Positions 3,841 through 60,834 are shown, numbered from the stretch's first letter. The stretch is DNA of 64,000 bases from an uncultured Verrucomicrobiae bacterium (GCA_963846775.1 CAWJXB010000006.1:1702990-1766989); one strand, 5' to 3'. Notes: a model not told the origin generated them from the letters alone. Numbers and translations: made by a program.

Positions 3841-3866
3841 GCGACGGTCACAGACCGCCGCTACAG
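3841..3866. repeat. REP-like palindromic unit (forward), overlapping mdh stop
   Basis: gcgacggtcacagaccgccgCTAcag. The CTA is the reverse complement of the mdh TAG stop. Confidence 0.7.
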
Positions 3867-8151: not shown

Positions 8152-8183
8152 GACGGCAAAGCGTTGCGGATACCCCTTGGAAT

Positions 8184-8250
8184 GTAGCGGCGGTCTGTGA
8201 CCGTCGCCATCTCTTGGAAAAAGTTTGCGACGCTCATAGAGCGCCGCTAC
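8184..8250. repeat. REP-like pair (inverted + forward unit with ~18-bp spacer)
   Basis: gtagcggcggtctgtgaccgtcgc ... tgcgacgctcatagagcgccgCTAca. The second unit supplies the dipeptidase stop codon. Confidence 0.7.
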
Positions 8251-17497: not shown

Positions 17498-17631
17498 CGC
17501 CGGACCGTCCGTCTCGTATTTCTACGACGCTATCAAGCCCGGTCAAATGGCGGGGATCAGTTCATCTCCAGAAACATTCAACCTGCCGCAATGCTCGCCT
17601 CTGAATTGGATGTTGAACGTTGGACAACCTG

Positions 17632-17668
17632 CCCCGTTTCTTTTTTTCGGGGTTGGGCGTTTTCTGAA
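17632..17668. repeat. 35-bp hairpin repeat (CCCCG-T-rich-CGGGG + TTGGGCGTTTTCT), intergenic copy
   Basis: ccccgtttctttttttcggggttgggcgttttct; 27 of 28 positions identical to 48131-48158. Confidence 0.6.
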
Positions 17669-23939: not shown

Positions 23940-25043
23940 TCAGCTCTCCCGTTCGCCGCGGATAAATTGCTCGACGCAGCGATAGGCTTCGTCGTCAGTC
24001 ATTTGCACGGGAGGATGCTTCGAGAAAAAGGCGGAGGGAGAATGCAGGACGCCGCCGATGCCGCGGTCGAGCGCGAGTTTACAACACCGGATCGAGTCGA
24101 TGGCGATGCCGGCGGAATTCGGTGAATCTTCGACGGAAAGCTTCACGTCGATCTCCATCGGCACGTTGCCGAAGAGACGACCTTCGACTCGGATAAACGC
24201 GATCTTGTTGTCGAGCTGCCAGGGAACGTAATCGCTCGGGCCGATATGAATATTTTCATCGGCCAGCCGCTCGCCGATGACCGATTGCACCGCCTCGGTC
24301 TTGGAGGTTTTCTTCGAGGCGAGTCGGGTACGATTGAGCATATTGAGGAAATCGGTGTTGCCGCCGGTGTTCAATTGATACGTGCGTTCAACCTTGACGC
24401 CCCGTTTGCGGAAAAGATCGACAATCATGCGATGCAAGACCGTCGCGCCGAGCTGCGCTTTGATGTCGTCGCCGATGAGGGGCAGATTTTTCTCGGCGAA
24501 TTTTTTTGCCCAGACCGGATCGCTGGCGATGAAGACCGGGATATTGTTGACAAAGCCCATTCCAGCTTGGAGCGCGCAACTGGCATAAAACCGGGTCGCT
24601 TCTTCCGAGCCGACCGGAAGATAATTCACCAGCAGCTCGGCCGAAGAATTTTTCAGCTCGGCGATGACTTGCTCGCGGGTGGATTCTTTTTCGAGCGGCA
24701 GGAATGTGCGAAGCGGATCCTGGTCGCGCATGTGCGGCGCATAACTATCGAGGACACAGCCCATCTTCACGATTGCGCCGGTAAGCTTGATTTTTTCGCA
24801 GAAAATTTTCGTGCAATTCGGCGGGGAGAAGATGGCCTTGCTGACATCGAGGCCGACCTTGCGGCGGTCGATGTCGAATGCGGCCACGACTTCGATGTCG
24901 TTCGGGTGATACGGACCAATCTGGCGATGCATCAGACCGACGCTGGTGCCATTGGGAGAGGCACCGTTGTAAAAGTTGATTCCTTGGACAAGTGAGCTGG
25001 CGCAGTTGCCGACGCCAACGATTGCGATTCGAATTTTTCTCAT
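23940..25043 (-). CDS. ino1: myo-inositol-1-phosphate synthase (inositol-3-phosphate synthase, archaeal/bacterial type)
   Basis: 367 aa. N-terminal NAD-binding IAIVGVGNCASSLVQG and conserved MIPS core motifs. Confidence 0.85.
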   Translation of the reverse strand: MRKIRIAIVGVGNCASSLVQGINFYNGASPNGTSVGLMHRQIGPYHPNDIEVVAAFDIDRRKVGLDVSKAIFSPPNCTKIFCEKIKLTGAIVKMGCVLDSYAPHMRDQDPLRTFLPLEKESTREQVIAELKNSSAELLVNYLPVGSEEATRFYASCALQAGMGFVNNIPVFIASDPVWAKKFAEKNLPLIGDDIKAQLGATVLHRMIVDLFRKRGVKVERTYQLNTGGNTDFLNMLNRTRLASKKTSKTEAVQSVIGERLADENIHIGPSDYVPWQLDNKIAFIRVEGRLFGNVPMEIDVKLSVEDSPNSAGIAIDSIRCCKLALDRGIGGVLHSPSAFFSKHPPVQMTDDEAYRCVEQFIRGERES

Positions 25044-46564: not shown

Positions 46565-47032
46565 CTAGTGATCGGCAAAGACTGGCCCGGCGGAAATGTC
46601 TGCGGCGGTGAATTCGAAAACGTGTTCCTTGGCGCGGAGGGTTTTTAGAAGCACCGCCAGATTTTGCGCGGCTTGCGCGGCGTAAAAGCGTACCAGACCG
46701 ACCGTGGTGCGCTTGCCGAAGACCGCAATCATGATCGTTTCATCATCGACCGAATTCATAAAAATGTGGCTGCTGTTGCCCTGATGAAAGAGCGCATTGA
46801 ACTCGACTTCGCCGATCCGGCGGGCGAGCTCACACGTGGCGGCAAATGAACCGGCGGCAAGCGCGGCCATGATCGTGACATCCACAGCCTCCCGTTCGCC
46901 GAACTGTGAGATTACGTTGCCGCCGCGATCAATCACAATCGTCAAATCGCCCTCGGCTTTGTGCACGAACTCGGCCAAAATGGCGTCAAGTGCGGCGACG
47001 TCTTCGATCGTCAGGGCGGGAATTCCGTTCAT
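46565..47032 (-). CDS. mglB: roadblock/LC7-domain protein, MglB-like GTPase-activating protein
   Basis: 155 aa roadblock fold. The C-terminal block (TTVGLVRFYAAQAAQNL) aligns with the MglB TSLGLVRLRIKKASDEL region. 4-bp overlap with the upstream mglA. Confidence 0.75.
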   Translation of the reverse strand: MNGIPALTIEDVAALDAILAEFVHKAEGDLTIVIDRGGNVISQFGEREAVDVTIMAALAAGSFAATCELARRIGEVEFNALFHQGNSSHIFMNSVDDETIMIAVFGKRTTVGLVRFYAAQAAQNLAVLLKTLRAKEHVFEFTAADISAGPVFADH

Positions 47033-47700
47033 GGGGAAGCTTCCTTCTCTTCCGCAGCGCCATGCTGCACTGGGATCGCCACCGGCGGCGGCGGAGTGTG
47101 CGGCAGATCACTTTGTTTGCTAAATTTATGAAGCAAAATCTGCGAAACCGCATTGAGGGCGGAGAATACGTTTTGTCCGGTACTGGAAATGGCCTCGAAA
47201 CTTTGTAATCGCTTCTTCCGGTTGTTCAGAGTGTATTCGAGATAATTGATCGGTGCGACATTCGGCAGATCCCGCTTGTTATACTGAAGCACGAGCGGTA
47301 TGTCGTCGATGTTGGCGTTTTGGAGGGCGAGATTCTCGCTCAGATTCTTGAAGCTTTCCACGTTCTCCTCCATTTTCTCCCATTGGGAATCGGCCACAAA
47401 AACGAGACCATCGGTGCTGCGCAACACGAGCTGGCGGGTAGCGTTGTAAATCACCTGACCCGGCACGGTATAGAGCTGGAACTTCGTCACGAAGCCTTTG
47501 ATCACGACCGCATTCAGCGGTAAAAAATCGAAGAACAAGGTACGGTCGGCAGCCGTGGCCAACGAAACCAGTTCGCCACGATTTTTCGGACTGATCCGCT
47601 GATGGATGTAAGCCAGGCTCGTCGTCTTCCCGCACAGCGCGGGCCCGTAGTAAACGATCTTGAATTGGATTTCGCGGCTGGCGTAATTAACGATCGACAT
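47029..47700 (-). CDS. mglA: Ras-like small GTPase MglA
   Basis: Near-colinear with Myxococcus MglA: (SIVNYASREI)QFKIVYYGPALCGKTT, TLFFDFLPL, LYTVPGQV, DGLVFVADSQ, LQYNKRDLPN. Start at the internal ATG (MSIVNY). Confidence 0.9.
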   Translation of the reverse strand: MSIVNYASREIQFKIVYYGPALCGKTTSLAYIHQRISPKNRGELVSLATAADRTLFFDFLPLNAVVIKGFVTKFQLYTVPGQVIYNATRQLVLRSTDGLVFVADSQWEKMEENVESFKNLSENLALQNANIDDIPLVLQYNKRDLPNVAPINYLEYTLNNRKKRLQSFEAISSTGQNVFSALNAVSQILLHKFSKQSDLPHTPPPPVAIPVQHGAAEEKEASP

Positions 47701-49762
47701 GCGAGGGTTCCGGATAGGCTTGTGAGACTTGCTGGAGAAGCTGCGCCAGTTGCTCACGCGTTTCGGTGCTGAGGTCCTGGCCGTTTTTGTGCCAGGCAGT
47801 CAGGCAAAGTTTGTCTTGCTTGAAAAAGGTCAGGCTCGAATCACCACAATGCAGCGACATTGCCACGAGCCCGCCAAGTCTTGTGTCTTCGAGGTGATTG
47901 TCGATCTTGTCGATCAGCGCTGGCGCGATGGAACAGATCCCTTCGGCCTGCAAATCGCCCGGGATGTTACCCGCCAGGCTGAGGCCGTCCGTGAACGAGA
48001 CGGTGCAACCGGCCACGCCAGTGAGACCACTGGCGCGAGCAATTGCGCGTTTGGCGTCGATCGCTTCCGCCTTGGCCGAGGCTCCGGCAGACGGTTCGAT
48101 CTTTTCTTCAGTTGGACGTTGGGCAGCCCGCCCCGTTTCTTTTTTTACGGGGTTGGGTGTCGGGCGTTGGGCGTTTTCTTTGCCACTCTGAAAACGTTTC
48201 GCGTCCTCCTCCGCTTTGAGCGAAAATGGCGTCTCGAATTTCTCGGTCACCGCTTCCTGTTCCTGGTCCGCGCGCACGCGCAGCGCCGTGACTGGAAACT
48301 GCTTCACGATTTCTGGCAACGGGAGCGTCACCGCTGTCTCGTTAGGATCAACCAGGAAGAGCGGCCGATACGCTTCGGGCACGGCCCGTTCGAAAATGCG
48401 CGCCGGGATACTAACGCGACCAGACGCCAACTGTGGCTCTATCATCGACGACGGAAATTCCACGCGCGCGTCTTCCGGAACGCTCATCGGGCTGCCGTTC
48501 AATTGAAATGGCGGCAACTCGCTCAGGACCGCCTGGAGCGACAAGATAATGTTGCGCTCGCCCTTTCCGCCTGGTGTCGGCGCGACCGGCTGCCTCGGGG
48601 ACGGCTCAGATTTTGCGGCAGGCTCGATCCCCGGCACGAGGGTAAACTTGGGGCGAATATCGTTGCTCGGCGCTTTAACCGCGAACGGAACCGGCGGAAG
48701 CGGCGGTTGATCGAGAGCGACTGTCTCGTTAGGCTTCTGCGCCGGGGCCGCGACGGCCGATTCAGGTTCAGACGCCGAAATTGGAACGGGCGGCCCGCTT
48801 GAGGCTGGAACTCTCTCAGCGGCGGGCGCGCCCGTCCCGTTCGGTGGAAGATGGAACGGAATCTCTCTGGCGGCCGGTGTGGCAATACCATCATCGGCGC
48901 GTGGGGTTTGCAGGGTCGCTGGAGGAGAAGCAGCGGGAGCTGAAGTAAGCGCTCCCAAATCCCGCAGCGAAATCTTTGGCCGGCGGGACCGTGTCGGAGT
49001 TTCCTCGGAAACCTTTTGCTTTGGTTTCGCTAATTGCAGAACGGCGGGTTCAGGCTCGGCTTCGGCGATTGTTTTCGCAATCGCGGGCTCCACTTTCATC
49101 GGCGGCTGCGTCGATGTTTGCAACGGCTCGATCTCGGTGCCAAAGCGCTCCGTGTCCTCGATCGTGACCTGCAAGATCGGCGTGTCGAGCTGGGGCAAAT
49201 TTTCATCGCGTTCTTGATCGTTGCGCACGTGAAAATTGTGGAATTGCTCGAGCACTTTCGCATAGGGAAGCGGGACCGGAGTGGCGTCTCCTGGCGCGAC
49301 GACGTTGACAAAAATTTCCGGCGCCTGTTCATAGATGCTCGCCAGTGGCACACTCGGCTTGCCCTTAGCCATGCCCTTTTCGATCTCCGATGCCATGAGA
49401 ACAATGGTGCGCGCGGCATCAATTTCCTTGGTTGGTTTAATGGCGGTGTTCGGCAACTGATCCAGAATGTCAGACACTTGGAGAGAAATGGTGCGTCGGA
49501 TTTCCGCTTCGGGAGTGCGTTCATTCAGGGGCCGAGCCGTCAAGGGGTCGAGTGCACGAGCGGAGTTCTTCGCCCCCAGAAACGGATCGGACCCGCTCCC
49601 TGGGCGGTTCGCGCTCGGCATCACCGTCTTACTCAAACGCTGATCCTTTGACTTCACTGCCCGCACCATCGGTGGTGCCGCCGGCTTGCTTTTCCCGAAT
49701 GGAAAAAAACGCGCCTTCGCTTTAATGACAAGATCGACAAACGGCAGGTTCATAACGCTCAC
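47687..49762 (-). CDS. Pro/Ala-rich 691-aa protein with internally duplicated motif and C-terminal roadblock/LC7-like domain
   Basis: Low-complexity Pro-rich central region. A ~35-aa motif occurs twice (IYEQAPEIFVNVVAPGDATPVPLPYAKVLEQF and IFERAVPEAYRPLFLVDPNETAVTLPLPEIVKQF). The last ~120 aa resemble a roadblock fold. Confidence 0.6.
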   Translation of the reverse strand: MSVMNLPFVDLVIKAKARFFPFGKSKPAAPPMVRAVKSKDQRLSKTVMPSANRPGSGSDPFLGAKNSARALDPLTARPLNERTPEAEIRRTISLQVSDILDQLPNTAIKPTKEIDAARTIVLMASEIEKGMAKGKPSVPLASIYEQAPEIFVNVVAPGDATPVPLPYAKVLEQFHNFHVRNDQERDENLPQLDTPILQVTIEDTERFGTEIEPLQTSTQPPMKVEPAIAKTIAEAEPEPAVLQLAKPKQKVSEETPTRSRRPKISLRDLGALTSAPAASPPATLQTPRADDGIATPAAREIPFHLPPNGTGAPAAERVPASSGPPVPISASEPESAVAAPAQKPNETVALDQPPLPPVPFAVKAPSNDIRPKFTLVPGIEPAAKSEPSPRQPVAPTPGGKGERNIILSLQAVLSELPPFQLNGSPMSVPEDARVEFPSSMIEPQLASGRVSIPARIFERAVPEAYRPLFLVDPNETAVTLPLPEIVKQFPVTALRVRADQEQEAVTEKFETPFSLKAEEDAKRFQSGKENAQRPTPNPVKKETGRAAQRPTEEKIEPSAGASAKAEAIDAKRAIARASGLTGVAGCTVSFTDGLSLAGNIPGDLQAEGICSIAPALIDKIDNHLEDTRLGGLVAMSLHCGDSSLTFFKQDKLCLTAWHKNGQDLSTETREQLAQLLQQVSQAYPEPSHVDR
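48131..48178. repeat. 35-bp hairpin repeat, copy inside Pro-rich protein coding sequence
   Basis: ccccgtttctttttttacggggttgggtgtcgggcgttgggcgttttct; encodes ...NPVKKETG... on the minus strand. Confidence 0.6.
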
Positions 49763-51477
49763 TGGTCCTCCGCCGTAACGCGCCAGACTTCTTCCAGCGT
49801 GGTGATACCTTCCAGCGCCTTCTCGATTCCAACCTTGCGCAATGTTTTCATTCCTTCGTTCATCGCCTGGTTCTTAATAACCGCAGCCGAAGCGCGTTTA
49901 ATGACGAGCCGCCGGATCGTTTCCGTCACGGTCAGCGCCTCGATAATGGCGACGCGTCCCACATAGCCGCGGCCCTTGCACCGATCACATCCGGAGCCGC
50001 GATAAAAAACTGTATTCTCTCGATCTCGCAGGGCGAGCCGCTCGAGCAGCTCCGGCTCGGGCTTGAATTCATCTTTGCAGTTGGGGCAGACTCGCCTAAC
50101 GAGACGCTGGGCGCAGGTCATGAGAATGGAGCTGGAAATCAAGAACGGCTCGATCCCCATGTCGTCCAGGCGGGTGATCGCACCAGCCGCGTCGTTCGTG
50201 TGGAGCGTGCTTAACACCTGGTGACCGGTCAACGCCGCTTTGACCGCGATGTCGGCAGTCTCGTTGTCACGAATTTCTCCCACCATCACGATGTCGGGAT
50301 CCTGTCGCAGGATCGAGCGAAGCGCGGATGAAAAATCCAAACCGATGTCGCTGCGTACGGCGACCTGGTTCACCCCCATCAGCTCGTATTCGATCGGGTC
50401 TTCCACCGTCACGATGTTGTATTGTGGATTGTTCAGCTCGTGCAGAACGGAGTAAAGCGTCGTGGTTTTGCCCGAACCAGTCGGGCCCGTCACCAGGATC
50501 ATTCCGTGCGGCGCATCGATCGCTTTGCGGAATTTCTCCAGAGTTTCCTGGTCCATGCCTAACTGATCGATCCCGCCGGAAAGGGATGTCTTATCCAGAA
50601 TACGAATCACAATTTTCTCGCCGTGCGCCGTTGGCAGAATCGAGATACGAAGATCGACATCTTTGCCCATGACCCGGACCCGGAAACGCCCATCCTGCGG
50701 CAGACGGCGCTCCGCGATATTCAGCCCGGCCAAAATTTTCATGCGCGAAGTGATGGCAAGCTGAAGCGCTTTCGGCGGCGACTCGGCCGGGAGCAGCTCG
50801 CCATCGACACGGTAACGCAATTTCAGCGCCGTATGGAACGGTTCGATGTGAATGTCTGACGCTTTTTCCTTCACGGCCTGCGCCAGGATCAAATTCACCA
50901 TCTTAATCACGGGCGCGTCGTCGCCGTCGGTCGCCAGACGCTCCAGATCGATCTCTTCGTGTTTGGCCACGTGCACTTTCACGTCGGACGCCTGCACCGC
51001 CGCTTCGGCCGCTTTCTTCAACGCCTGGCTCATGTTGCCGACGCCGTGAATCCCGCTCAGCATTTCGGTGACCGCTTTCTCGGTGGCGATCATCGGGACG
51101 ATCTCGAGCTGGACGCGACGCTTCAGGTCGTCCATGGCCAACACGTTGGTCGGATCGGCCATGGCGACGAAGAGTTTGCCGTTTAAGCGCGCGATCGGCA
51201 CTAACTTGTTCGTCTTGGCCATCTCCCGCGGCACCAGCGCCGTAATCTCTTCGGGCACACGCACCTTTGTCAGGTTCACGGGCGGCGTATTCAGGCACCG
51301 GCCCGTGCTGAACGCCATGTCCTGTTCAGTGACGAATTGTCGTTCCGTCAGGATCTTCAGCAACCGGCCACCCTCGGCTTTTTGAATGTCGAGCGCCTCG
51401 CGCAATTGCGCCGGCAAAAGCAGTCCGTCCTCAATCAGGACGTCGGCGATGCGCTCTCCAAAAGATTTCGTTTTCAT
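49759..51477 (-). CDS. pilB: GspE/PilB-family secretion ATPase (type IV pilus assembly ATPase-like)
   Basis: N-terminal T2SSE_N domain, Walker A GPTGSGKTT, Asp/His boxes, tetracysteine CPNC...CDRC. Start at the internal ATG (MKTKSFGER). Confidence 0.88.
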   Translation of the reverse strand: MKTKSFGERIADVLIEDGLLLPAQLREALDIQKAEGGRLLKILTERQFVTEQDMAFSTGRCLNTPPVNLTKVRVPEEITALVPREMAKTNKLVPIARLNGKLFVAMADPTNVLAMDDLKRRVQLEIVPMIATEKAVTEMLSGIHGVGNMSQALKKAAEAAVQASDVKVHVAKHEEIDLERLATDGDDAPVIKMVNLILAQAVKEKASDIHIEPFHTALKLRYRVDGELLPAESPPKALQLAITSRMKILAGLNIAERRLPQDGRFRVRVMGKDVDLRISILPTAHGEKIVIRILDKTSLSGGIDQLGMDQETLEKFRKAIDAPHGMILVTGPTGSGKTTTLYSVLHELNNPQYNIVTVEDPIEYELMGVNQVAVRSDIGLDFSSALRSILRQDPDIVMVGEIRDNETADIAVKAALTGHQVLSTLHTNDAAGAITRLDDMGIEPFLISSSILMTCAQRLVRRVCPNCKDEFKPEPELLERLALRDRENTVFYRGSGCDRCKGRGYVGRVAIIEALTVTETIRRLVIKRASAAVIKNQAMNEGMKTLRKVGIEKALEGITTLEEVWRVTAEDQ

Positions 51478-52373
51478 GACCCCGGCGAACCCTTGGCCGA
51501 ATCGAGCCGGTAAATTCCCTGCAACGTCTTCACAATGGCCGACGGCCGGGCCAGGTACCACATCACGGTGTAATCGACCGATTGCTGCACCGCTTCGCGC
51601 CCGGCGGCATCGAACGGATTGCAGCACGCCACCATCATCGTTCGGCTAACTAGATCGAACGGCGCGAAGAGCCGGCCCAGCGTGAGGTGTTCCGGCAACA
51701 TCGGCGCGATTTGCCGGTCCACATCGTAATACTCGAGCGGCACGTAAGCGAACTTGGTTCGGTCGATCAGGGCCGAAAGGATTTTTTCCGACTTCTCGAT
51801 ATTATCCTTGCACAAATGGTCTAACAATGAGGCTGCGATCGTTTGTGGCGGCAGTTCCTTGTTCATTTGGTCCACCGCTTTCACCGCCGGTTTCACTTCC
51901 TCTTCCGGGAAGAGTTGTTGAACGATGAGAAATTTTGCGAGCTGATCGGTGCCGCGTTCGTGCAAACTGCTGACTTTACCAACGTTAGCGCCCGGAACGA
52001 TATCGATCAACGCGCCCTCCGCTTCGCCGGCGCCATTGGGGCCGGCCGATTTCGCCGCTGTCGCGCCTGCGGCCTGCAAGCGGGCCTCGATCTCGCCCAA
52101 CATCGCCAGGATGTCGGGCGCGTTCGGTTCTTTCCCAAGCACAACCTCGCATTCCTGCATCGCGTGGGCGTACGAACCCGCGGCGAAATACGCCTCCGCC
52201 AGCCGGCGAGACGTACGCAAAGAATCGGCGTCTCGACCGACTTTCCGGTAAGCCTCCTTCAGAATTTCCAGCGATTGATAGTCGTCGGGTTGGGTTTGAG
52301 TAATTGCCTCAAACATCTCGATCGTCTGGACGATCTGTGTATGTTCTTGTTTCGACAGACTGTGTCCCAGCAC
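51474..52373 (-). CDS. stand-alone GspE-N (T2SSE_N)-like domain protein with TPR-like N-terminus
   Basis: C-terminal ~100 aa (LLDHLCKD...YVPLEYYDVD...LGRLFAPFDLVSRTMMVACCNPFD) resemble the N-terminal domain of PilB/GspE ATPases. 4-bp overlap with pilB. Confidence 0.5.
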   Translation of the reverse strand: MLGHSLSKQEHTQIVQTIEMFEAITQTQPDDYQSLEILKEAYRKVGRDADSLRTSRRLAEAYFAAGSYAHAMQECEVVLGKEPNAPDILAMLGEIEARLQAAGATAAKSAGPNGAGEAEGALIDIVPGANVGKVSSLHERGTDQLAKFLIVQQLFPEEEVKPAVKAVDQMNKELPPQTIAASLLDHLCKDNIEKSEKILSALIDRTKFAYVPLEYYDVDRQIAPMLPEHLTLGRLFAPFDLVSRTMMVACCNPFDAAGREAVQQSVDYTVMWYLARPSAIVKTLQGIYRLDSAKGSPGS

Positions 52374-52494
52374 GTCGCCCTAAAAAAGCTAGAAATATGC
52401 CCCTCGCTCGCTATCGCGACCGAAAAGGAGTGGAATTACACAAATTACCTATAATCCGGGGCATCCTCTTTCCTGATTGTTCGTGAAATTGGCG

Positions 52495-52570
52495 TTAAAA
52501 AAGTCGGAAAAAACAACCTTTTCTCCGAAATTTAGCAAAAAGGGGCGCTGCAATTCGAAAAGGAAGAAGA
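52495..52570 (+). promoter_or_regulatory. conserved ~75-bp upstream element (copy 1, before PMT-like TPR gene)
   Basis: ttaaaaaagtcggaaaaaacaaccttttctccgaaatttagcaaaaaggggcgctgcaattcgaaaaggaagaag; ~75% identical to 54681-54757. Confidence 0.55.
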
Positions 52571-52598
52571 AGTGTCCGCGGTTGCCAAAGCCTGGTCT

Positions 52599-52674
52599 GT
52601 AGCGGCGCGTCTATGACCGTCGCCATCTCTCAGCCCTCCAGTTTGCGACGGTCGCAGACTGCCGCTACAATCGC
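52599..52674. repeat. REP-like pair inserted in 5' leader of the PMT-like TPR gene
   Basis: gtagcggcgcgtctatgaccgtcgcc - 20-bp spacer - tgcgacggtcgcagactgccgctacaatcgc. Confidence 0.7.
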
Positions 52675-52692
52675 TCGCAGGGTGCCTTTGCC

Positions 52693-54561
52693 ATGAACTT
52701 AACCGGGTTGCGGCAGCATACTCGTTGCGCCGCTTTATTGATCGCGCTTGCCGTATTGCCGTACCTACAGACCCTCAGTCACGATTTCATCAACTACGAC
52801 GATAATCTATATGTCACCGAGAACCATCATGTCCAACAAGGCCTGACCTTGCCCGCAATCTCGTGGGCGTTTACCACATTCAAAGGCGGCAACTGGCATC
52901 CCCTGACGTGGCTCTCGCACATGCTGGACATAAACATCTGGGACGGATGGCCGGGCGGGCATCATCTCACGAACGTCGCGCTCCACGCCGCAAATACACT
53001 GTTGTTATTCCTGATTCTACTGGAAATGACCGGTGGCCTCTGGCGGAGCGCTCTGGTCGGCGCTCTTTTTGCCGTGCATCCGCTCCATGTGGAATCGGTT
53101 GCCTGGATTGCCGAACGCAAAGACGTCCTCAGCACTTTTTTTGGCTTGCTTGCTCTCTGGGCTTATCTCGCATATACGCGCCGGCCCTCAGCCAAACAAT
53201 ATTTGGCCATGACCGGTTTTTTCATTCTCAGCCTGATGGCGAAACCGATGCTGGTCACTTTCCCCTTTCTGCTTTTGTTGCTTGATGTCTGGCCACTAAA
53301 ACGATGGAGGCTCGGTCCAGTCGATAGCGAAGGCCGCAGAAGCCATCTCGCCAATGGTAGGGACGGCTCGCCGGTCGATCCGCATCGAGTGTCCCACGAT
53401 GCGGCAATAAAACGCGCTATTCTGGAGAAACTTCCGCTGTTCGTCGTCGCTGCGATGTTCAGTGTGATCGCCATCGTCTCACAACGCGGCACGGGGGCCC
53501 TCGGCGGGCTTGTCGCGTTTCCGCTTTCAACTCGGATCGTCAACGCCTTTGTCGGATACGCGTTGTATCTCGAAAAGCTGGTCGCGCCCGTGAATCTGGC
53601 GGTTTTCTATCCACATCCTGGTCACTGGCCGATGCTTCAAGTCGCGGTGAGTGTTGCCATCCTGTTGGGGATTACCGTCGTTGCCATCTGGCAGCGAGGT
53701 CGGCGGCCATGGCTGCTGATCGGCTGGTTGTGGTTTGTTGGAATGCTCGTTCCAGTAATCGGTTTGATCCAGATCGGTATGCAATCGATCGCCGATCGAT
53801 ATACCTATTTCCCGGCGATCGGCGCTTTCATAATGATCGCGTGGAGCATTCCCGCTGCGATGCCGCCGATGGCAAAGCGCGCGGTGATCGGCGCGGCATG
53901 CATCTGCATTCTTGGCCTAACAATAATGACATGGCGCCAGATTTCCTACTGGCAAAATAGCCGGACGCTCTTTACTCACGCTCTTGCGGTCACGCGCGGT
54001 AATTTCATCGCACACCAAAATCTTGGGAGTGTCTTCGAAGGGGATGGGAACCTCAACGCTGCGCTCGAACAATACCGCTGGGCCGCCAGCGAATTCCCAG
54101 GATACGGAAGGATTCACGAAAACATCGGGAACGTCTTGCTGAAACAGGGCCGTTATCCGGAAGCGTTAGCAGAATTTAAGAGCGCCATCGATCTCGACCC
54201 GCATTCCTCAAGTGCCTTCAACAGCATCGGATCTATCGCGCTCATGAATCAGCAATACGACGATGCGGCGAAGTACTTCCGACGCGCTGTTGAGCTCGAC
54301 CCCGATAACGTTCCCGCGCACATTAACTTCGGCACATCCTTGGTAAAGCTTGGCCGATACGATCAAGCGATTGCGCAATTGGCTCCGATCACGCGAGCGG
54401 AGCCAAAGCGTATTGTGGCCAGAACGAACCTCGCTCGCGCTCTGGCCGGTCGTGGGAATGTCGATCAAGCCATCGCCGAATTGCACCAAATTCTTCAGAT
54501 GCAGCCCGAGTACGCTCCGGCCCGCGAAGCTCTGCAAGAGATTCAAATCAATCGACGATAA
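52693..54561 (+). CDS. PMT-like (DUF1736-type) membrane glycosyltransferase with C-terminal TPR repeats
   Basis: Conserved N-terminal FINYDDNLYVTEN...GLT motif, ~11 TM helices, then 5-6 TPR repeats, 622 aa. Confidence 0.8.
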   Translation: MNLTGLRQHTRCAALLIALAVLPYLQTLSHDFINYDDNLYVTENHHVQQGLTLPAISWAFTTFKGGNWHPLTWLSHMLDINIWDGWPGGHHLTNVALHAANTLLLFLILLEMTGGLWRSALVGALFAVHPLHVESVAWIAERKDVLSTFFGLLALWAYLAYTRRPSAKQYLAMTGFFILSLMAKPMLVTFPFLLLLLDVWPLKRWRLGPVDSEGRRSHLANGRDGSPVDPHRVSHDAAIKRAILEKLPLFVVAAMFSVIAIVSQRGTGALGGLVAFPLSTRIVNAFVGYALYLEKLVAPVNLAVFYPHPGHWPMLQVAVSVAILLGITVVAIWQRGRRPWLLIGWLWFVGMLVPVIGLIQIGMQSIADRYTYFPAIGAFIMIAWSIPAAMPPMAKRAVIGAACICILGLTIMTWRQISYWQNSRTLFTHALAVTRGNFIAHQNLGSVFEGDGNLNAALEQYRWAASEFPGYGRIHENIGNVLLKQGRYPEALAEFKSAIDLDPHSSSAFNSIGSIALMNQQYDDAAKYFRRAVELDPDNVPAHINFGTSLVKLGRYDQAIAQLAPITRAEPKRIVARTNLARALAGRGNVDQAIAELHQILQMQPEYAPAREALQEIQINRR

Positions 54562-54680
54562 TTTTGCCGGGCATTTGCCCGCGCATTGAATAACTCTCAC
54601 GTTTCCCGCCACGCCATGGGTCTTTCCGAGAAGAGCAGTTGGCGCAGGGTCGGTCGCGCCCGCAATTTCCACTCAAAATT

Positions 54681-54757
54681 TTCAAAAAAGGGTGGAAAAA
54701 GCTTGACCTTTTATCCGAAATCTATCAAAACGGACGCTGTAATTCTAACGAGGAGAA
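54681..54757 (+). promoter_or_regulatory. conserved ~75-bp upstream element (copy 2, before PEP-CTERM gene)
   Basis: ttcaaaaaagggtggaaaaagcttgaccttttatccgaaatctatcaaaacggacgctgtaattctaacgaggagaa; ends in RBS 5 nt before the ATG. Confidence 0.55.
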
Positions 54758-54761
54758 TATT

Positions 54762-55445
54762 ATGAGCCCAGAAAACCGAAAACTGAGTCCCCGTATTGAC
54801 GGTCGTTTGGCCGCGTATGCAACCCTGGCAGGTGCCGCCTTAGCCGCGCCGGCTGTCCCGAACGCTGATGCCACTATCGTTTACAGCGGAATCGTCAACT
54901 TTAATATCCCGAGCACGACGGCTGGCATTTATTTGAACGTCGTCACTGGCGTCACCTCGACGACTCCCGCCGGCGCTCCCGGCTGGGACCTGAACCCATG
55001 GAGCAGCAGCTCCCTCGAAATCTGGGGAAATAATTCCGCCAGCCCTAATGATGGTGTTCTGGACAACTTCACGGGAGGCGCAGCTGGTTCAGTCGATAAT
55101 CTTCCGGTTGGAGCTGTCATCGACGCCTCGTGGAACTATGGCAGAACCGATTCTACGGTTGAAACGTCCGGCCCCACTGCCTTTAATCTCAACAGCAGCA
55201 ACAACATTTTTGGATTCCGGTTCTTGAACGAATCTACCGGTGTATATGACTTCGGCTGGGCGCGGGTTTCGCTTTCCGGGACCTTAGGCGGCCAGCCACG
55301 GGCGATTGTGGAGTATGCCTACGAGGACACGGGCGCGGCAATTATGGCCGGCCAAGTTCCAGAGCCTTCTACCATGGCTCTGCTGGGCGTGATGGCAGCA
55401 GGTGCACTTGGCGTGCGCGCCTGGCGCAAGAGTAAGAAGTCGTAA
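54762..55445 (+). CDS. PEP-CTERM sorting-domain protein
   Basis: Signal peptide. C-terminus VPEPSTMALLGVMAAGALGVRAWRKSKKS is the PEP motif + TM + basic tail. AGGAGA RBS 7 nt upstream. Confidence 0.85.
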   Translation: MSPENRKLSPRIDGRLAAYATLAGAALAAPAVPNADATIVYSGIVNFNIPSTTAGIYLNVVTGVTSTTPAGAPGWDLNPWSSSSLEIWGNNSASPNDGVLDNFTGGAAGSVDNLPVGAVIDASWNYGRTDSTVETSGPTAFNLNSSNNIFGFRFLNESTGVYDFGWARVSLSGTLGGQPRAIVEYAYEDTGAAIMAGQVPEPSTMALLGVMAAGALGVRAWRKSKKS

Positions 55446-55477
55446 TCCACGGGCTATTTCGTTTCTTTCTCCAAGGA

Positions 55478-55519
55478 GCCCGCGCGGACGTGAGTGTCGC
55501 GCGGGCTTCTGTTTTTCTG
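55478..55519 (+). terminator. Rho-independent terminator downstream of PEP-CTERM gene
   Basis: agcccgcgcg-gacgtgagtgt-cgcgcgggct stem-loop (10-bp GC stem) followed by tctgtttttct. Confidence 0.7.
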
Positions 55520-55640
55520 GGAGAGCGCCCTGCCTGCCTTCGGCAGAAAAGGCGAACGCCCGCCACGGGTACTAGCGGCCGGTACATATAGGATCGACAA
55601 TCGATTTGCCGATGTAACGATGTAACCATTCAACGACGAT

Positions 55641-56330
55641 ATGAAGGTCTCTGTTGTCATCCCATGCTTCAACGAACGCGACACGATCGAACGAATCATT
55701 GACGCGGTGCGCAGAGCACCGCTGGCAGATCGCGAAATCATCGTGGTGGATGACGGCTCAAACGATGGAACGACGTCCGTTCTGAAGGAGCGAATCACGC
55801 CTCTGGTGGATCGCATTATCTATCAACGTGGCAACCAGGGGAAAGGCGCCGCTCTCCGGGCCGGGTTCGCTGCCGCCAGCGGTGAGGTGATTCTCGTGCA
55901 GGATGCCGACCTCGAATACGACCCGGCGGAGTATCCCATTCTGCTTGAGCCTATCTTTTCCGGCGAAGCGGATGCGGTTTTCGGCTCGCGCTTCATGGGC
56001 GGCGGGCCGCATCGCGTTCTATATTTCTGGCACATGGTTGGAAACAAGTTCCTCACGCTGCTCTCAAACATGTTTACAAATCTCAACCTCACGGATGTGG
56101 AAACCGGCTCTAAAGCCTTTCGCGCATCAGTACTTAAGACGCTGGACTTGAGTGAGGACCGCTTCGGATTCGAGGTGGAGATCGCGGCGAAACTGGCTAA
56201 AACGCGCTGCCGGATTTATGAAGTCGGCGTTTCCTACAGCGGCCGCACATACCTTGAGGGGAAGAAAGTGAATTGGAAAGATGGGGTCCACGCGATCTAC
56301 GCCATTCTGCGTTACAATTTGCTTCCATGA
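55641..56330 (+). CDS. GT2 polyprenol-phosphate glycosyltransferase (Ppm1/DPM1/GtrB-like)
   Basis: 229 aa soluble GT-A (VVIPCFNE, DDGSNDGT, QDADLE DxD). Confidence 0.85.
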   Translation: MKVSVVIPCFNERDTIERIIDAVRRAPLADREIIVVDDGSNDGTTSVLKERITPLVDRIIYQRGNQGKGAALRAGFAAASGEVILVQDADLEYDPAEYPILLEPIFSGEADAVFGSRFMGGGPHRVLYFWHMVGNKFLTLLSNMFTNLNLTDVETGSKAFRASVLKTLDLSEDRFGFEVEIAAKLAKTRCRIYEVGVSYSGRTYLEGKKVNWKDGVHAIYAILRYNLLP

Positions 56331-56692
56331 GAGGAAATCATTCGTGCGGATTCATCGCCGCTCTTGCCGGCGCACACCAAAGCGACGGACCTCGTTGACG
56401 CAGCCCACGCAAGGGGAATAATCCCACTATGACTCTCACCGCTTGACGGTAAGAAGCGCGGCGTGCTGCCTGGAGCAAAGCCGGGAGGCGTTTTCGCCTG
56501 CGAGCAAAAGGCGAATACAATTCTTCTGCGCCGCGTTCACCGAACCGTCTCGCGCAAGAAATTGACCAAGGCACAGGCGCTCAAGGCAGTCCGCGGTTGG
56601 AAAGCGTTGCGCGGCGTGAAGTGGGAAGAACTGCGCGCCAGAGAGTCTTGATTCGGCTCAATCGAACTTATCGAGCCGCCGCTTTCATGAGT

Positions 56693-56725
56693 TTGCGACG
56701 GTCACAGACCGCCGCTACAATCGCC
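56693..56725. repeat. REP-like palindromic unit (forward)
   Basis: tgcgacggtcacagaccgccgctacaatcgcc; identical core to the 3841 copy. Confidence 0.7.
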
Positions 56726-56806
56726 CCAGCGTTGGGCGTGGGCTTTCTTTTAGCAACAAAGATCGACTGAAGGTTCAGCACAACGTTGCGACAGAGTCAG
56801 AATACG

Positions 56807-58834
56807 ATGAACTCCTCTCCGCTGGCCAATCCTTCACGCGTCCTAGTGATCGGTTGGGACGCGGCCGATTGGCAGGTGATCCATCCGTTGGTTGACAATG
56901 GGCTCATGCCCACTCTCCAACGCTTGATCGAAGGCGGTGTGATCGGGAATCTGGCGTCGCTCTCGCCGATGCTTTCACCGATTCTCTGGACTAGCATCGC
57001 TACGGGCAAACGCGCCTACGCTCACGGTGTGCGCGGGTTCATCGAGCCGCTTCCCGATCGTTCCGGCCTCCATCCCGTCGGGACGCGCTCCCGAAAATGC
57101 AAAGCGCTTTGGAATATCGCCTCGCAATCGAACCGCAAAAGCGTGATCTGCGGCTGGCAAGCGAGTCATCCGGCGGAGCCGATTCAGGGCGCGATGGTGT
57201 CGAATCTCTTTTGCATCCCGCCGCTAAATTCAACGCCGGATTCATGGTTAATCCCTGAAGGAAGTGTTCAGCCGCCAGCACTGGCCAGCGAGCTCGCGGA
57301 GCTGCGGGTGCATCCACGGGAAATCGAAGCGACGCCGATTCAGCAGTTGATCCCGCGGGCAGCTGAGCTGGACCAGAAGGATTTGCTTGTCCAACGCCGC
57401 CTGACTTTGTTGACCGAGCGCCTCGCGGAAGTGATCAGCGTTCACGCCGTCGCGACCGAGCTACTGGAAAGAGAACCCTGGGATTTCGGCGCAGTTTATT
57501 ACGAATGCATCGACCAGGTCGGGCACGAGTTCATGTCCTTCCATCCGCCGCGATTACCCGAGATTAGCGAACGCGAATTCGAATTTTATCGCGACGTGAT
57601 AACCGGCGTTTACCGATTCCATGATCTAATGCTGGCGCGCCTCGTCGAGCTGGCGGGACCGAGCGCACACATTATGATTGTTTCCGATCATGGATTCGAA
57701 AGCGGGGCGCGCCGGCCCCGCGGGCGAGTCGAGCCAGCAAAGTGGCATCGGCCACAGGGAATTTTCGTGCTGCATGGCCCGGGGATTCGAGCGGACGAGA
57801 GAATCGAGGGCGCAACCTTGCTCGACATCGCCCCGAGCGCGCTTACCTTGCTTGGGTTGCCCATTGGCGAGGACATGGAGGGCAAACCTCTGGTCAGCGC
57901 GTTCGAGAAACCGCCGGATATCAAACGAATTCCGTCATGGGAAAAGGTAGCGGGCGAAGACGGGCATCTTCCGCCTCGGGCCGGGGATGAAGATCCGGCC
58001 GCTGCACAGGCCGTGCTGCGCCAGTTTATTGCCCTTGGCTATGTCAACGCGCCCGGTGATGACACGCTGCGGCTTATTTCCCTGGCCGAGGACGAATCCG
58101 ATTTCAATGTCGCCGTCAGTTTGTGCGAGGCCGGGCGCGCGCGCGAAGGCAAAGAACTTCTGGCCAAGCTGATAGCCCGAAGACCCGACGAACCGCAGCC
58201 GCGCTATTGGATGGCCTTTGCTCAGGCCTGCCTCAGCGCGCAAACACCTCACGAAGCGGCACCCGCGCTTGATGCGCTAGAGCGAACTCAGCCGGACGCG
58301 CCGCAAACGCTTGTCCTGGGTGGGGTGTTGGCCTGGGTGCGCGGCGATATGGAAGGCTGTGCCGAGGCTTTCCATAAAGCGGAACGCGTTGCTCCTAACG
58401 ACCCAATCACCCAAACGTATCTCGGCCGGCTTTACTTGCGTCAGCGCCGATGGCCGGAAGCCGAGCGCGCCTTCCGGCTCGCACTGAGGGTCAATCCAGA
58501 CATGCCTGAGGCACATTATGGATTGAGCGTGGCGCTGCCACGGCAAAATTTCGTCGAACAAGGAATCGATCACGCTTTGCTGGCCGTGGGTCTGCGCCAC
58601 GAATTTCCCGAGGCGCATTTCCAGCTCGGCGCGTTGCTCTCGCGGATGGGGTGGTTCGAACGGGCCATTCAGGCTTTTGAGATGTCGCTCCGGATGCGCC
58701 CCGGCTTCGTTCTGGCCCATCGTTATCTCTCGCGCATTTACCCTCGCATCGGGCGATCCGATCTGGCCGAGCGCCACCGCAAGGAAGCCGCCCGTCTTTT
58801 GGAAATGCGCGTGCCCCAGCCAATTGCGGATTAG
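56807..58834 (+). CDS. alkaline-phosphatase-superfamily (type I phosphodiesterase/nucleotide pyrophosphatase) protein with C-terminal TPR repeats
   Basis: N-terminal VLVIGWDAADW and the metal-ligand region of AlkP-core enzymes. The C-terminal ~250 aa are TPR repeats. Confidence 0.7.
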   Translation: MNSSPLANPSRVLVIGWDAADWQVIHPLVDNGLMPTLQRLIEGGVIGNLASLSPMLSPILWTSIATGKRAYAHGVRGFIEPLPDRSGLHPVGTRSRKCKALWNIASQSNRKSVICGWQASHPAEPIQGAMVSNLFCIPPLNSTPDSWLIPEGSVQPPALASELAELRVHPREIEATPIQQLIPRAAELDQKDLLVQRRLTLLTERLAEVISVHAVATELLEREPWDFGAVYYECIDQVGHEFMSFHPPRLPEISEREFEFYRDVITGVYRFHDLMLARLVELAGPSAHIMIVSDHGFESGARRPRGRVEPAKWHRPQGIFVLHGPGIRADERIEGATLLDIAPSALTLLGLPIGEDMEGKPLVSAFEKPPDIKRIPSWEKVAGEDGHLPPRAGDEDPAAAQAVLRQFIALGYVNAPGDDTLRLISLAEDESDFNVAVSLCEAGRAREGKELLAKLIARRPDEPQPRYWMAFAQACLSAQTPHEAAPALDALERTQPDAPQTLVLGGVLAWVRGDMEGCAEAFHKAERVAPNDPITQTYLGRLYLRQRRWPEAERAFRLALRVNPDMPEAHYGLSVALPRQNFVEQGIDHALLAVGLRHEFPEAHFQLGALLSRMGWFERAIQAFEMSLRMRPGFVLAHRYLSRIYPRIGRSDLAERHRKEAARLLEMRVPQPIAD

Positions 58835-59197
58835 GCGGCCGTTAACAGTTAGGACTGTTCAACGTCGAAGCGACACCTTGTTTCTCTTTTTTTGTCCCGG
58901 GGCAAGGTCAACTCACGGTCGAAATTCGAATCCTACATTGAAGTTGAGGACACGCGGAAGAGCGCGATAAGATTTTTTCCTTCATGCGTGTTCCAGGAAA
59001 GAATTTGTGGGGAGCCAGCAGGGTGATGGTGATTTGCCTGGCGGACCTTGCAGGCCCAGGGCTCGGGTCCGTTAGGCAAATGCTTTCTACTTGAACACGT
59101 TGTCATTCTGAGCGAAGCGAAGAATCTCTGATTGGTTCAGAGTGAGCCATGCCAAGACAATGACCAGAGATGTTTCTCCCGCGACTGCGGGATCAAC

Positions 59198-60232
59198 ATG
59201 ACAAAAGAGCGCCACGAATTCGCCAGCGATAATACTGCCCCGATTTGTCCCGAAGTCTGGGATGCCCTGGCAAAAGCAAACCGCGCCGCCGCCGCGTCCT
59301 ATGGTGAAGACGAATGGAGTGCGCGACTACACGAACGTGTCCGCGACCTGTTCGAAGCCGATTGCGAGAGCTTTCTTGTCTTTAACGGCACGGCTGCGAA
59401 TGCGCTGGCGCTGGCGCAGCTTTGCCAGCCGTTTCACAGCATCGTTTGTCACGAACGCGCCCACATTGAAACCGACGAGTGCGGCGCGCCGGAATTTTTC
59501 TCCGGCTCTAAACTGCTGGTCGCGCGTGGCGATCACGGTAAAATCGACATTGGCGAGGCGCAATCGGTCATTGGTCGCCAGCCGGAACTACACGCGCAGA
59601 AGCCGCGGGTCATCAGTCTGGCGCAAGCGACAGAGTTGGGCACAGTTTACCAACGGCACGAGATTCGCGCGCTGAGCGAATTGGCCCTTGAACGGTCGCT
59701 CTTCATCCACATGGATGGCGCACGCTTCGCCAATGCCGTGGCGTCGCTTGACTGCGCCCCGAAAGAAATCTCGTGGCAGTCCGGGGTCGATGTTCTCTGT
59801 TTCGGCGGCACCAAAAACGGGCTCGCTGCGGGGGAGCTGGTTGTGTTTTTTAAGAAGGAATTGGCGCGCGAATTCGATTACCGGATCAAACAAGCCGGGC
59901 AGCTCGGTTCGAAAATGCGGTTTCTGGCTGCGGGCTGGCTTGCGCTTCTCGAAAACGATCTTTGGCTGCGCAATGCCGAACAGGCCAATGCGGCCGCGCG
60001 CCGGCTGGCGGAAAAGCTCCGCGGGCTAACGAACATTAGCATTTTGTTTCCGGTGGAAGCGAACGCGATTTTTGTTCGTTTGGAAGAGCGAATCGCACAC
60101 GCGCTGCAAGCAGCCGGCTGGCATTTCTACAGGTTTATTGAGCCTGATGTTTATCGCTTCATGTGTTCGTGGGCGACCAGCGAGCGCGCCACTGAAGATC
60201 TTGTCGCGGAAGTAAAACGTGCGTGGAAGTGA
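59198..60232 (+). CDS. ltaE: low-specificity L-threonine aldolase
   Basis: Beta-eliminating lyase fold with PLP-Lys region (GGTKNG), 344 aa from the internal ATG (MTKERHEFASDN). Confidence 0.85.
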   Translation: MTKERHEFASDNTAPICPEVWDALAKANRAAAASYGEDEWSARLHERVRDLFEADCESFLVFNGTAANALALAQLCQPFHSIVCHERAHIETDECGAPEFFSGSKLLVARGDHGKIDIGEAQSVIGRQPELHAQKPRVISLAQATELGTVYQRHEIRALSELALERSLFIHMDGARFANAVASLDCAPKEISWQSGVDVLCFGGTKNGLAAGELVVFFKKELAREFDYRIKQAGQLGSKMRFLAAGWLALLENDLWLRNAEQANAAARRLAEKLRGLTNISILFPVEANAIFVRLEERIAHALQAAGWHFYRFIEPDVYRFMCSWATSERATEDLVAEVKRAWK

Positions 60233-60282
60233 TGAACCGCCTAAAAATTGCGCCCGGCGCGCGAAGTCGTATAAAGCACGCA

Positions 60283-60834
60283 ATGCCGCATCACGCGCAA
60301 TCGTTTTTGTTGCTTAACCTGTCGATCCTGACAGGAACCGCGTTGGGTGGGTGCAGCGTCGCTCACGATGCTGCCTCCGTGACGTATCACGCTGCATCCG
60401 CAACGTACCATGCTGCATCCACAACGTATCATGCTGCATCCACAACGTACCACGCGGTCACTGTGCCGGTGCGAATCATTAGGCGGAACGTTGCCCATCG
60501 ACTGCCTCCCGACGCTCATGGGGAAAACACGACCACGAGCGTCGTGACCGAAACGGCCCCGACAACTCCGGATTCTTCGATCGCGACGACGCCTGCAACG
60601 CCCCGGAAGTCCGCCCCCCCGCAAAAGGCCGCGGTCTTCTCGAAGGCTAAAGCTTCGCCAACTCCAGGTGCCGTGCCGCGTGTGCAATTTCCAATCGCCG
60701 AGCGGGTTCCCGGCAAATCCGGATTGGTGATGAGCCCGTTCGATCCGGAAGCAAGATATGTCGACGTCAGCGGTTACGCCTCCGGCAGTAAAGTGAAGGA
60801 TCCGTGGACGGAGAAGATTTTCATTGTGCCGTAG
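60283..60834 (+). CDS. lipoprotein with four tandem (V/A/T)TYHAAS heptapeptide repeats and Thr/Pro-rich linker
   Basis: Signal peptide with lipobox-like LGGC. Repeats encoded by four 21-bp tandem units (60380-60463). Confidence 0.5.
   Translation: MPHHAQSFLLLNLSILTGTALGGCSVAHDAASVTYHAASATYHAASTTYHAASTTYHAVTVPVRIIRRNVAHRLPPDAHGENTTTSVVTETAPTTPDSSIATTPATPRKSAPPQKAAVFSKAKASPTPGAVPRVQFPIAERVPGKSGLVMSPFDPEARYVDVSGYASGSKVKDPWTEKIFIVP
60380..60463 (+). repeat. 4 x 21-bp in-frame tandem repeat inside lipoprotein gene
   Basis: gtgacgtatcacgctgcatcc / gcaacgtaccatgctgcatcc / acaacgtatcatgctgcatcc / acaacgtaccacgcggtcact. Confidence 0.8.

Follow-up and report, generated by a model that had tools for sequence, protein, structure and literature searches.

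Upstream of verrucomicrobial PEP-CTERM genes: a promoter-like element, its leader and the relic of a duplicated copy

What does it mean when two different genes, lying close together, are preceded by similar sequences? The question is raised by a 64,000-nucleotide stretch from an uncultured Verrucomicrobiae bacterium (GCA_963846775.1, CAWJXB010000006.1:1702990-1766989; hereafter the window), in which an element of about 75 bp occurs ahead of a gene for a TMTC/PMT_2-like membrane protein (copy 1) and again ahead of the gene for a PEP-CTERM protein (copy 2). A preliminary description of the window had read the pair as a shared promoter or operator, and had concluded that a candidate glycosylating enzyme and its candidate substrate are co-regulated. 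As far as the sequence allows us to judge, the element is an ordinary promoter with its leader, a signal of a known kind, and its two copies do not reveal a shared switch. The explanation that we favour, and regard as likely, is that the element is the core promoter and short leader of PEP-CTERM genes that form single-gene units, that it was duplicated together with its gene, and that copy 1 subsequently decayed.

Both copies lie on the plus strand at the positions first given for them, 52495-52570 and 54681-54757. A global alignment of these intervals has 57 identical columns in 80 (71%), in keeping with the earlier estimate of about 75%, and a MAFFT alignment of slightly wider pieces has a mean column identity of 76%. 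The local alignment score of the two copies is 32, against 7.6±1.3 (maximum 16) for shuffled sequences (n=2000), and a core, CCTTTTNTCCGAAATNTANCAAAA, is identical letter for letter in both. The similarity is wider than originally drawn, since an iterated profile extends it to 52467-52591 and 54659-54785, or about 125 nucleotides (nt). Within the window the pair stands alone: no other site matches the core with three or fewer mismatches (chance expectation 0), and a two-copy profile run with nhmmer yields no credible third copy, the best remaining match having E=0.26. That match, at 24778-24832, was rejected as a candidate because of its E-value and its position inside a coding region.

The company that the element keeps is best seen in a larger set of 423,135 bases, which we scanned with the iterated profile and which consists of the window and loci L012-L084, namely 66 metagenome loci encoding relatives and 7 more found by exact-protein look-up. 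In this set the element sits only directly 5' of PEP-CTERM genes or of their decayed remnants, always in one orientation, and it precedes 17 distinct intact PEP-CTERM genes on soil metagenome contigs. To this extent the preliminary description was right to see a cis-acting expression signal. The genes served belong to at least three PEP-CTERM subfamilies, all with PF07589 matches: a family of 227 amino acids (aa), L068:556-1215, and L083:9262-9891 together with L082:9069-9782. We found 399 homologues of the PEP-CTERM protein, and the few named ones among them are assigned to Chthoniobacterales or Verrucomicrobiota, apart from two Bryobacteraceae bins; the host lineage of the element family is probably made up of soil Verrucomicrobiota of the Chthoniobacterales kind. 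A search of 185,579 species genomes with a 19-base core, CCTTTTNTCCGAAATNTANCAA, gave 11 single matches, which are scattered over unrelated taxa, never extend past the core and are due to chance; among representative genomes, the source lineage yielded no exact match to it.

Aligned without gaps on TTGAC, the 17 intact copies have the consensus AAAAAGC TTGACC TTTTnnccGAAATTTAt CAAAAC GGAcGc, and all 17 follow the pattern AAAAAGC-TTGAC(C/A)-TTT..-N17-CA(A/C)AA(C/G/A). The AAAAAGC ahead of TTGAC is 80-100% conserved among them. The spacer between TTGACC and the hexamer is exactly 17 nt in 17 of 17 copies (17-18 nt in wider family members), and the hexamer that follows it in relatives is CAAAAC, CACAAC, CAAAAG or CAAAAA, in which the second base is nearly always A and the sixth is not T. 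Downstream of the hexamer GGAcGc is conserved and the remainder drifts with distance, until every intact copy reaches an AGGAG and then an ATG, 59-89 nt after TTGAC. Measured from TTGAC, identity to window copy 2 is 12-38% between -60 and -21, 35-70% over the A-tract (-20 to -1), 76-90% from TTGAC through the hexamer (0 to +29), and 36-93%, declining with distance, between +29 and +43. In other words, conservation forms an island over the -35 to -10 interval, and the intergenic DNA around it cannot be aligned.

Copy 2 (54684-54761) is arranged like a sigma-70-family promoter followed by a short leader, and its parts are collected in Table 1. It also bears out, for its own part, two features of the preliminary description, an AGGAG-type ribosome-binding site, which had been attributed to both copies (here GAGGAG, with the start codon ATG at 54762), and a TTGACC...TATCAA pair with a 14-bp spacing; in copy 1, by contrast, ACAACC stands in place of TTGACC, and the supposed ribosome-binding site, AAGGAAGAAG, precedes a dead frame of 14 codons. 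The gene behind copy 2 is the sole PEP-CTERM open reading frame (ORF) of the window. Its product scores 21.4 bits against TIGR02595 (cut-off 16) and 19.7 against PF07589, just below the cut-off of 20.7, and its tail, VPEPSTMALLGVMAAGALGVRAWRKSKKS, has the C-terminal PEP motif, hydrophobic helix and basic end of the class. Because a strong terminator closes it (-30.5 kcal/mol, z=-3.6, with 0 of 200 shuffles equally stable), the gene is a single-gene unit. In L080 and L082 the PEP-CTERM gene ends in the same terminator, and the layout agrees with the habit of PEP-CTERM genes to form single-gene operons (PMC1569441).

We suggest that an RNA polymerase carrying a sigma-70-family factor would bind the UP-like tract, the TTGACC and the CAAAAC of copy 2, that transcription would begin near 54738 to give a leader of about 24 nt containing GAGGAG ahead of the ATG, and that the transcript would end at the terminator. 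These are predictions as to the sigma factor, the position of the -10 box and the point of initiation. In the wider family, TTGAC-type boxes are paired with more varied hexamers (Table 1): there the 3' part of the spacer reads AAAT(T/C)TG(n), resembling an extended -10, and several diverged members have TG just 5' of the hexamer (…TGG CAAACC, …TGT CAAACC, …TGC CATAAC). Close paralogues and orthologues of the PEP-CTERM gene use differing promoter modules (L013, L082:15068). At L013, an 80% orthologue, the A-tract and TTGAC are kept with an unrelated spacer and the hexamer TAGAAA, and parts of the promoter seem to be exchanged at the -35 box.

Table 1. Positions of the element's parts, of neighbouring features in the window, and of diverged promoters in relatives.
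Feature	Position	Strand	Remarks
Copy 1, relic: promoter and leader left by a lost PEP-CTERM paralogue	52467-52592	+	orthologous copies share flank, deletion and remnant
REP pair, truncating the copy 1 remnant	52598-52674		inverted arms
REP-like unit, diverged, inverted	52598-52624
REP-like units	3841-3865(+), 8183-8207(-), 8227-8251(+), 52645-52669(+), 56695-56719(+)		unit GCGACGGTCNCAGACNGCCGCTACA
TMTC/PMT_2-like membrane protein, 622 aa, C-terminal TPR repeats	52693-54561	+	TPR families at residues ~440-620
A-tracts AAAAAA...GGAAAAA, UP-element-like	54684-54700	+	directly 5' of -35 box
-35 box TTGACC	54703-54708	+	TTGAC in 17/17 distinct intact copies
Spacer TTTTATCCGAAATCTAT, 17 nt	54709-54725	+	conserved blocks TTTT and GAAAT(T)T
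-10-like hexamer CAAAAC	54726-54731	+	17 nt after TTGACC
Putative start-site region GGACGCTG and 5' leader	54732-54761	+	predicted start near 54738
Shine-Dalgarno GAGGAG	54750-54755	+	~20 nt after CAAAAC, 6 nt before ATG 54762
PEP-CTERM protein gene, 227 aa	54762-55445	+	TIGR02595 above cut-off
Intrinsic terminator	55478-55519	+	GC-rich hairpin then TTCTGTTTTTCT, 3' of PEP-CTERM gene
Glycosyltransferase family 2 (GT2) enzyme, Dpm1/AglJ kind	55641-56330
Phosphodiesterase-TPR protein	56786-58834
Diverged promoter	L017, L036, L040		TTGACA-N18-CAAACC
Diverged promoter	L020		TTGACA-N18-CATAAC
Diverged promoter	L019		TTGACA-N18-TATAAG
Diverged promoter	L021		TTGACC-N17-GAAAAC
Diverged promoter	L082:15068 (14990-15070)		TTGAAA-N17-CATATC
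Diverged promoter	L013 (9890-10000)		TTGACG-N17-TAGAAA

Copy 1 tells a different story from copy 2. It has no TTGAC at all, its ACAACC occupying 52513-52518, and it retains an A-tract and a hexamer, CAAAAA, at 52536-52541. Behind its relic ribosome-binding site a GTG at 52572 opens merely the dead 14-codon ORF already mentioned, and the stretch from there to 52592 (GTG TCC GCG GTT GCC AAA GCC, about 7 codons, ending at a pair of repetitive extragenic palindromic (REP) units) aligns with the first codons of a PEP-CTERM fragment found in relatives. That fragment belongs to loci L015, L023, L026, L080 and L081, each of which has two copies of the element about 290 nt apart. The upstream, or "A", copies share their left flank with copy 1 of the window (…GAATTACACAAAT…CCGGGG…TTTCCTGATTGTTCGTGAAATT…), adjoin the same MshEN gene (89-93% protein identity), and share with copy 1 a 2-nt deletion by which CTTGACC has become CT--GCC or CA--ACC and the TTGAC has been destroyed. 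After the A copies come about 200 nt that match PEP-CTERM residues 29-75 (tblastn, E 1e-7 to 1e-9) and are decayed: stops interrupt the frame in L023, L026 and L080, the L080 fragment is frameshifted as well, and L015 has lost the start codon; an intact "B" copy and an intact gene come after the decayed fragment. Some orthologues of copy 1 are altered further within the conserved blocks, to CAAGAA, CCTGTT or CAATA.

The rate at which copy 1 has changed points the same way. Its identity to the A copies, 83-84%, matches the neutral benchmarks given by third codon positions of the MshEN gene (80-88%) and by adjoining intergenic DNA (85-88%), and copy 1 thus shows no sign of constraint. At L028, L024 and L053 the same MshEN-adjacent site, in what is read as the ancestral state, still has both a TTGACC promoter and a PEP-CTERM gene in intact form, from which it follows that copy 1 is the stub of a lost tandem paralogue. 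Given the deletion, the dead fragment and the neutral rate, the two copies owe their likeness to a gene duplication and not to upkeep as a common operator. Copy 1 itself most probably has no function, or retains weak promoter activity at best. The history would then have begun with a tandem duplication of the PEP-CTERM gene together with its promoter, giving two copies of the element; the 2-nt deletion would have killed the -35 box of the upstream paralogue, whose coding region decayed; and in the lineage of the window the paralogue would have been cut to about 7 codons, to be followed by the REP pair and the TMTC/PMT_2-like gene. Two further candidates in this segment were tried and rejected. 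One was a leader peptide after copy 1, for which the start is lost in L015, the frame is shifted in L080 and the stops fall at differing places; the other was a minus-strand terminator at 52528-52504 (hairpin and T-run), which has an AT-rich stem and would serve no gene, sites of this type numbering 6 where 5.6 are expected.

Several points weigh against the duplication and decay of a plain promoter. Copy 1 retains its A-tract and hexamer and may weakly read into the TMTC-like gene. As to the rearrangement that put this gene after copy 1, comparison of 54562-54702 and 52592-52692 with the remnant and TMTC-upstream regions of relatives produced only chance words of 7-9 nt. At copy 2 CAAAAC does not have the usual sigma-70 T at its last position, which makes both the -10 assignment and the choice of sigma factor uncertain, and the spacer, TTTT..CCGAAATTT, is conserved beyond the needs of a plain promoter; a regulator site may overlap the promoter here. 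Finally, the intact copies of the closest relatives have themselves diverged from the window about as fast as neutral sequence (84-90% identity), and for this reason it is the more distant copies that carry the case for constraint. The remaining occurrences of TTGAC in the non-coding DNA of the window are too few and too varied to give a promoter consensus for the lineage, and our reading of the literature brought up neither a verrucomicrobial promoter consensus nor usable work on PEP-CTERM glycosylation.

A more specific proposal can be built on the conserved spacer, and we put it forward only tentatively, as something we would not expect to hold: the -35 to -10 block TTGACC-TTTTnnCCGAAATTTAnCAAAAC-GGA might go beyond a housekeeping promoter and play in Verrucomicrobiota the part of the proteobacterial PEP-CTERM box, read by a lineage-specific sigma factor or a spacer-bound regulator and setting the expression of hypervariable PEP-CTERM surface proteins, which would be the substrates of neighbouring O-glycosylation genes of the TMTC/PMT_2-like and Dpm1-like GT2 kinds.

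The original operator reading, in which both copies are kept so that a dedicated regulator can switch the TMTC/PMT_2-like enzyme and its PEP-CTERM substrate together, now appears improbable. It can appeal to the spacer, where 80-100% conservation extends to bases (TTTT, CCGAAAT) that are not normal contacts of sigma-70 and where a loose dyad, TTTT(GC)-N10-(GC)AAAA, can be drawn, although the inner positions of this dyad are unpaired in 10 and 6 of the 17 copies. The block from spacer to hexamer also acts as a separable module, because L013 keeps the A-tract and TTGAC with an unrelated spacer and hexamer, and PEP-CTERM and TMTC-like genes are recurrent neighbours. Against this reading, copy 1 and all its orthologues are without the invariant TTGAC, have a dead gene fragment behind them and diverge at the neutral rate, with CAAGAA, CCTGTT and CAATA among the changes within the conserved blocks. 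The REP pair and 121 nt stand between copy 1 and the TMTC-like start codon, a better sigma-70 match in the REP unit itself adjoins that gene, and no regulator gene has been identified. The claim of co-regulation through a shared operator therefore finds no support.

Could the element act as RNA instead, as a riboswitch-like or protein-binding hairpin in a leader whose promoter lies further upstream? Weak pairings are available, of GGAAAAA with TTTTNTCC around TTGAC and of TTTTGC with GCAAAA, and copy 1 is somewhat more stable when folded than its shuffled versions (z=-1.7), but the intact copies have fold z-scores of -0.1, -1.25 and +0.64, and RNAalifold on the 17 copies returns 0 consensus pairs. 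The named helices have many broken pairs, with no significant covariation or convincing compensatory change. Rfam has no match at gathering score anywhere in the window, and at E up to 10 between 52300 and 55000 it gives chance-level matches alone, none of them on the element. A shared promoter further upstream is also missing, because the sequence 5' of the A-tract is unconserved. We consider a structured leader very unlikely.

Hardly any credence can be given to a sigma-54 promoter with an enhancer site of the PrsR type, the arrangement behind the earlier suggestion of a PrsK/PrsR-type regulator. Proteobacterial PEP-CTERM genes have such a site upstream (PMC1569441), and TGGAAAAAGCTTGAC of copy 2 does resemble TGGCAC-N5-TTGC, with an offset of 1 nt. 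The 17-copy alignment, however, contains no conserved GG-N10-GC: the GG of copy 2, on which the off-by-one reading depended, is mostly A elsewhere, where other copies show AAAAAAAGC, TTAAAAAGC or AGAAAGTC, and the GC at -12 is replaced by GA. The 17-nt motif ending in TTTACA is likewise absent about 63 nt upstream, TTTACA not occurring at all in 54560-54700, and the motif has been found in Proteobacteria only (PMC1569441). As for a small mobile or dispersed repeat, REP- or MITE-like (miniature inverted-repeat transposable element), that came to lie near these genes by chance, the genome does have a dispersed REP family with one pair beside copy 1, but the element has no terminal inverted repeats or target duplications, its orientation and distance to the start codon are fixed, CCTTTTNTCCGAAATNTANCAA gave only the 11 non-extending matches, and the 423 kb contain no copies away from PEP-CTERM genes or their remnants, so that the generic repeat which the preliminary description had allowed for is highly improbable.

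The REP pair reported between copy 1 and the start codon of the TMTC-like gene is real, with inverted arms at 52609-52628 and 52640-52659, and the window holds at least 5 REP units. The right-hand unit of the pair carries TTGCGA-N17-TACAAT (52643-52671), 22 nt before the TMTC-like start at 52693, which itself lies 121 nt beyond the GTG of copy 1. A plus-oriented unit has its sigma-70 match about 65 nt before the start of the phosphodiesterase-TPR gene (56786) as well. The repeat may thus supply outward promoters, and TTGCGA-N17-TACAAT is a candidate promoter for the TMTC-like gene of the window. The N-terminal 430 aa of the TMTC-like protein have no Pfam or PDB sequence match of their own; many homologues (47-62% identity) carry PF13231 (PMT_2), some are named protein O-mannosyl-transferase by JGI, and the label "PMT-like", which would place it among the GT-C glycosyltransferases, is plausible on these grounds. 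A 622-aa protein, P0133, is 100% identical to it over the N-terminal 430 aa compared.

The link between PEP-CTERM and TMTC-like genes is a recurrent neighbourhood and not a shared element. In L024, L026, L031 and L080-L083 a TMTC-like gene comes after a PEP-CTERM gene, and GT2 and phosphodiesterase-TPR genes often come next; the order is TMTC-like then PEP-CTERM in the window, L012, L014 and the P0003 contig. The TMTC-like protein of L080 is just 52% identical to that of the window, and its gene is for that reason a paralogue and not an orthologue. On the other side, 5' of copy 1 and on the opposite strand, lie the genes for the MshEN/TPR protein and a PilB/GspE-like ATPase. Where these MshEN and PilB-like flanks are 89-97% identical (L015, L023, L026, L028, L053, L080), the PEP-CTERM protein is only 56-85% identical. 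Judged by these sequences, the PEP-CTERM region turns over quickly, and its hypervariable product, a surface protein, may be under diversifying selection or subject to allele replacement.

A larger cluster recurs at 52693-60232 of the window, L080 10001-18739, L082 9069-19153 and L083 9262-19893. It comprises one or more PEP-CTERM genes, 1-3 TMTC/PMT_2-like TPR genes, a Dpm1/AglJ-like GT2, the phosphodiesterase-TPR gene and a beta-eliminating lyase, often with Trp-halogenase-like flavoproteins besides. This cluster is a candidate module for O-glycosylation of PEP-CTERM proteins from lipid-linked sugars, and the neighbourhood of PEP-CTERM, TMTC-like, Dpm1-like GT2 and phosphodiesterase-TPR genes is a better lead towards glycosylation than the element.

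Some other features of the window may be recorded here. The minus-strand run 46565-52373 is operon-like and encodes the MshEN/TPR protein, the PilB/GspE-like ATPase, which has MshEN and cyclic di-GMP-binding motifs, and a 691-aa protein without a family match. On syntenic contigs an Arf-like GTPase and a Roadblock/LC7 protein come next beyond this run, and their position beside a pilus-type ATPase resembles that of an MglA/MglB-like pair. At 60365-60469, inside the ORF 60223-60834, there is a tandem array of 21-nt units, ACGATGCTGCCTCCGTGACGT and variants, in at least 4-5 copies, which would encode a 7-residue protein repeat. Two 46-nt copies at 17612-17657 and 48111-48156 (83% identical, GTTG.ACGTTGG.CA.CC.GCCCCGTTTCTTTTTTT.CGGGGTTGG) have arms CCCCG/CGGGG around a T-rich stretch and look like a shared stem-loop element.

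How, then, does the element compare with known systems? A sigma-70 promoter with an UP element, such as rrnB P1 of E. coli, combines a -35 box TTGACA, 17 bp and a -10 box TATAAT. The element resembles it in several ways: A-rich sequence precedes the -35 box, TTGAC never varies, the spacer is always 17 nt long, the hexamer is rich in A and has A as its second base, the leader is short and includes a Shine-Dalgarno sequence, and conservation is highest across the -35 to -10 interval. It differs in that its CAAAAC is without the final T and in that its spacer sequence is conserved. Homologous promoters have TATAAG, CATAAC, CATATC, CAAACC or GAAAAC at the -10 position, and in this lineage hexamers that do not end in T (CAAAAC, CAAACC, CATAAC) may be able to serve as -10 elements.

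The decay of one member of a tandem duplication into a relic promoter or pseudogene stub is a general phenomenon. Copy 1 is like other such stubs in keeping a promoter, a ribosome-binding site and the first codons of its gene, with an inactivating deletion and neutral divergence; it is unlike them in now lying 5' of another gene, the TMTC/PMT_2-like one, into which some residual read-through is possible. The general lesson is that similarity between two upstream sequences is not in itself evidence of a shared operator, since one of them may be, as it is here, the fossil of a lost gene copy.

The closest functional parallel is the proteobacterial PEP-CTERM box, which consists of a 17-nt motif 1 ending in TTTACA (the PrsR site) and a motif 2 with the -24/-12 elements of sigma-54, separated by about 63 nt (Haft et al., 2006; PMC1569441). 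As in that system, a conserved block of DNA lies 5' of several single-gene PEP-CTERM units within a lineage. In contrast to it, the verrucomicrobial element has no sigma-54 signature, no TTTACA motif and no gap of about 63 nt; it lies 59-89 nt from the start codon, has the look of a sigma-70-type core promoter, and seems to have spread by gene duplication. Further PEP-CTERM motifs outside the Proteobacteria were left to be found by the earlier work (PMC1569441), and the element helps to fill this gap with a defined, non-sigma-54 promoter consensus that could be used in annotating PEP-CTERM genes and in designing reporters for Verrucomicrobiota.

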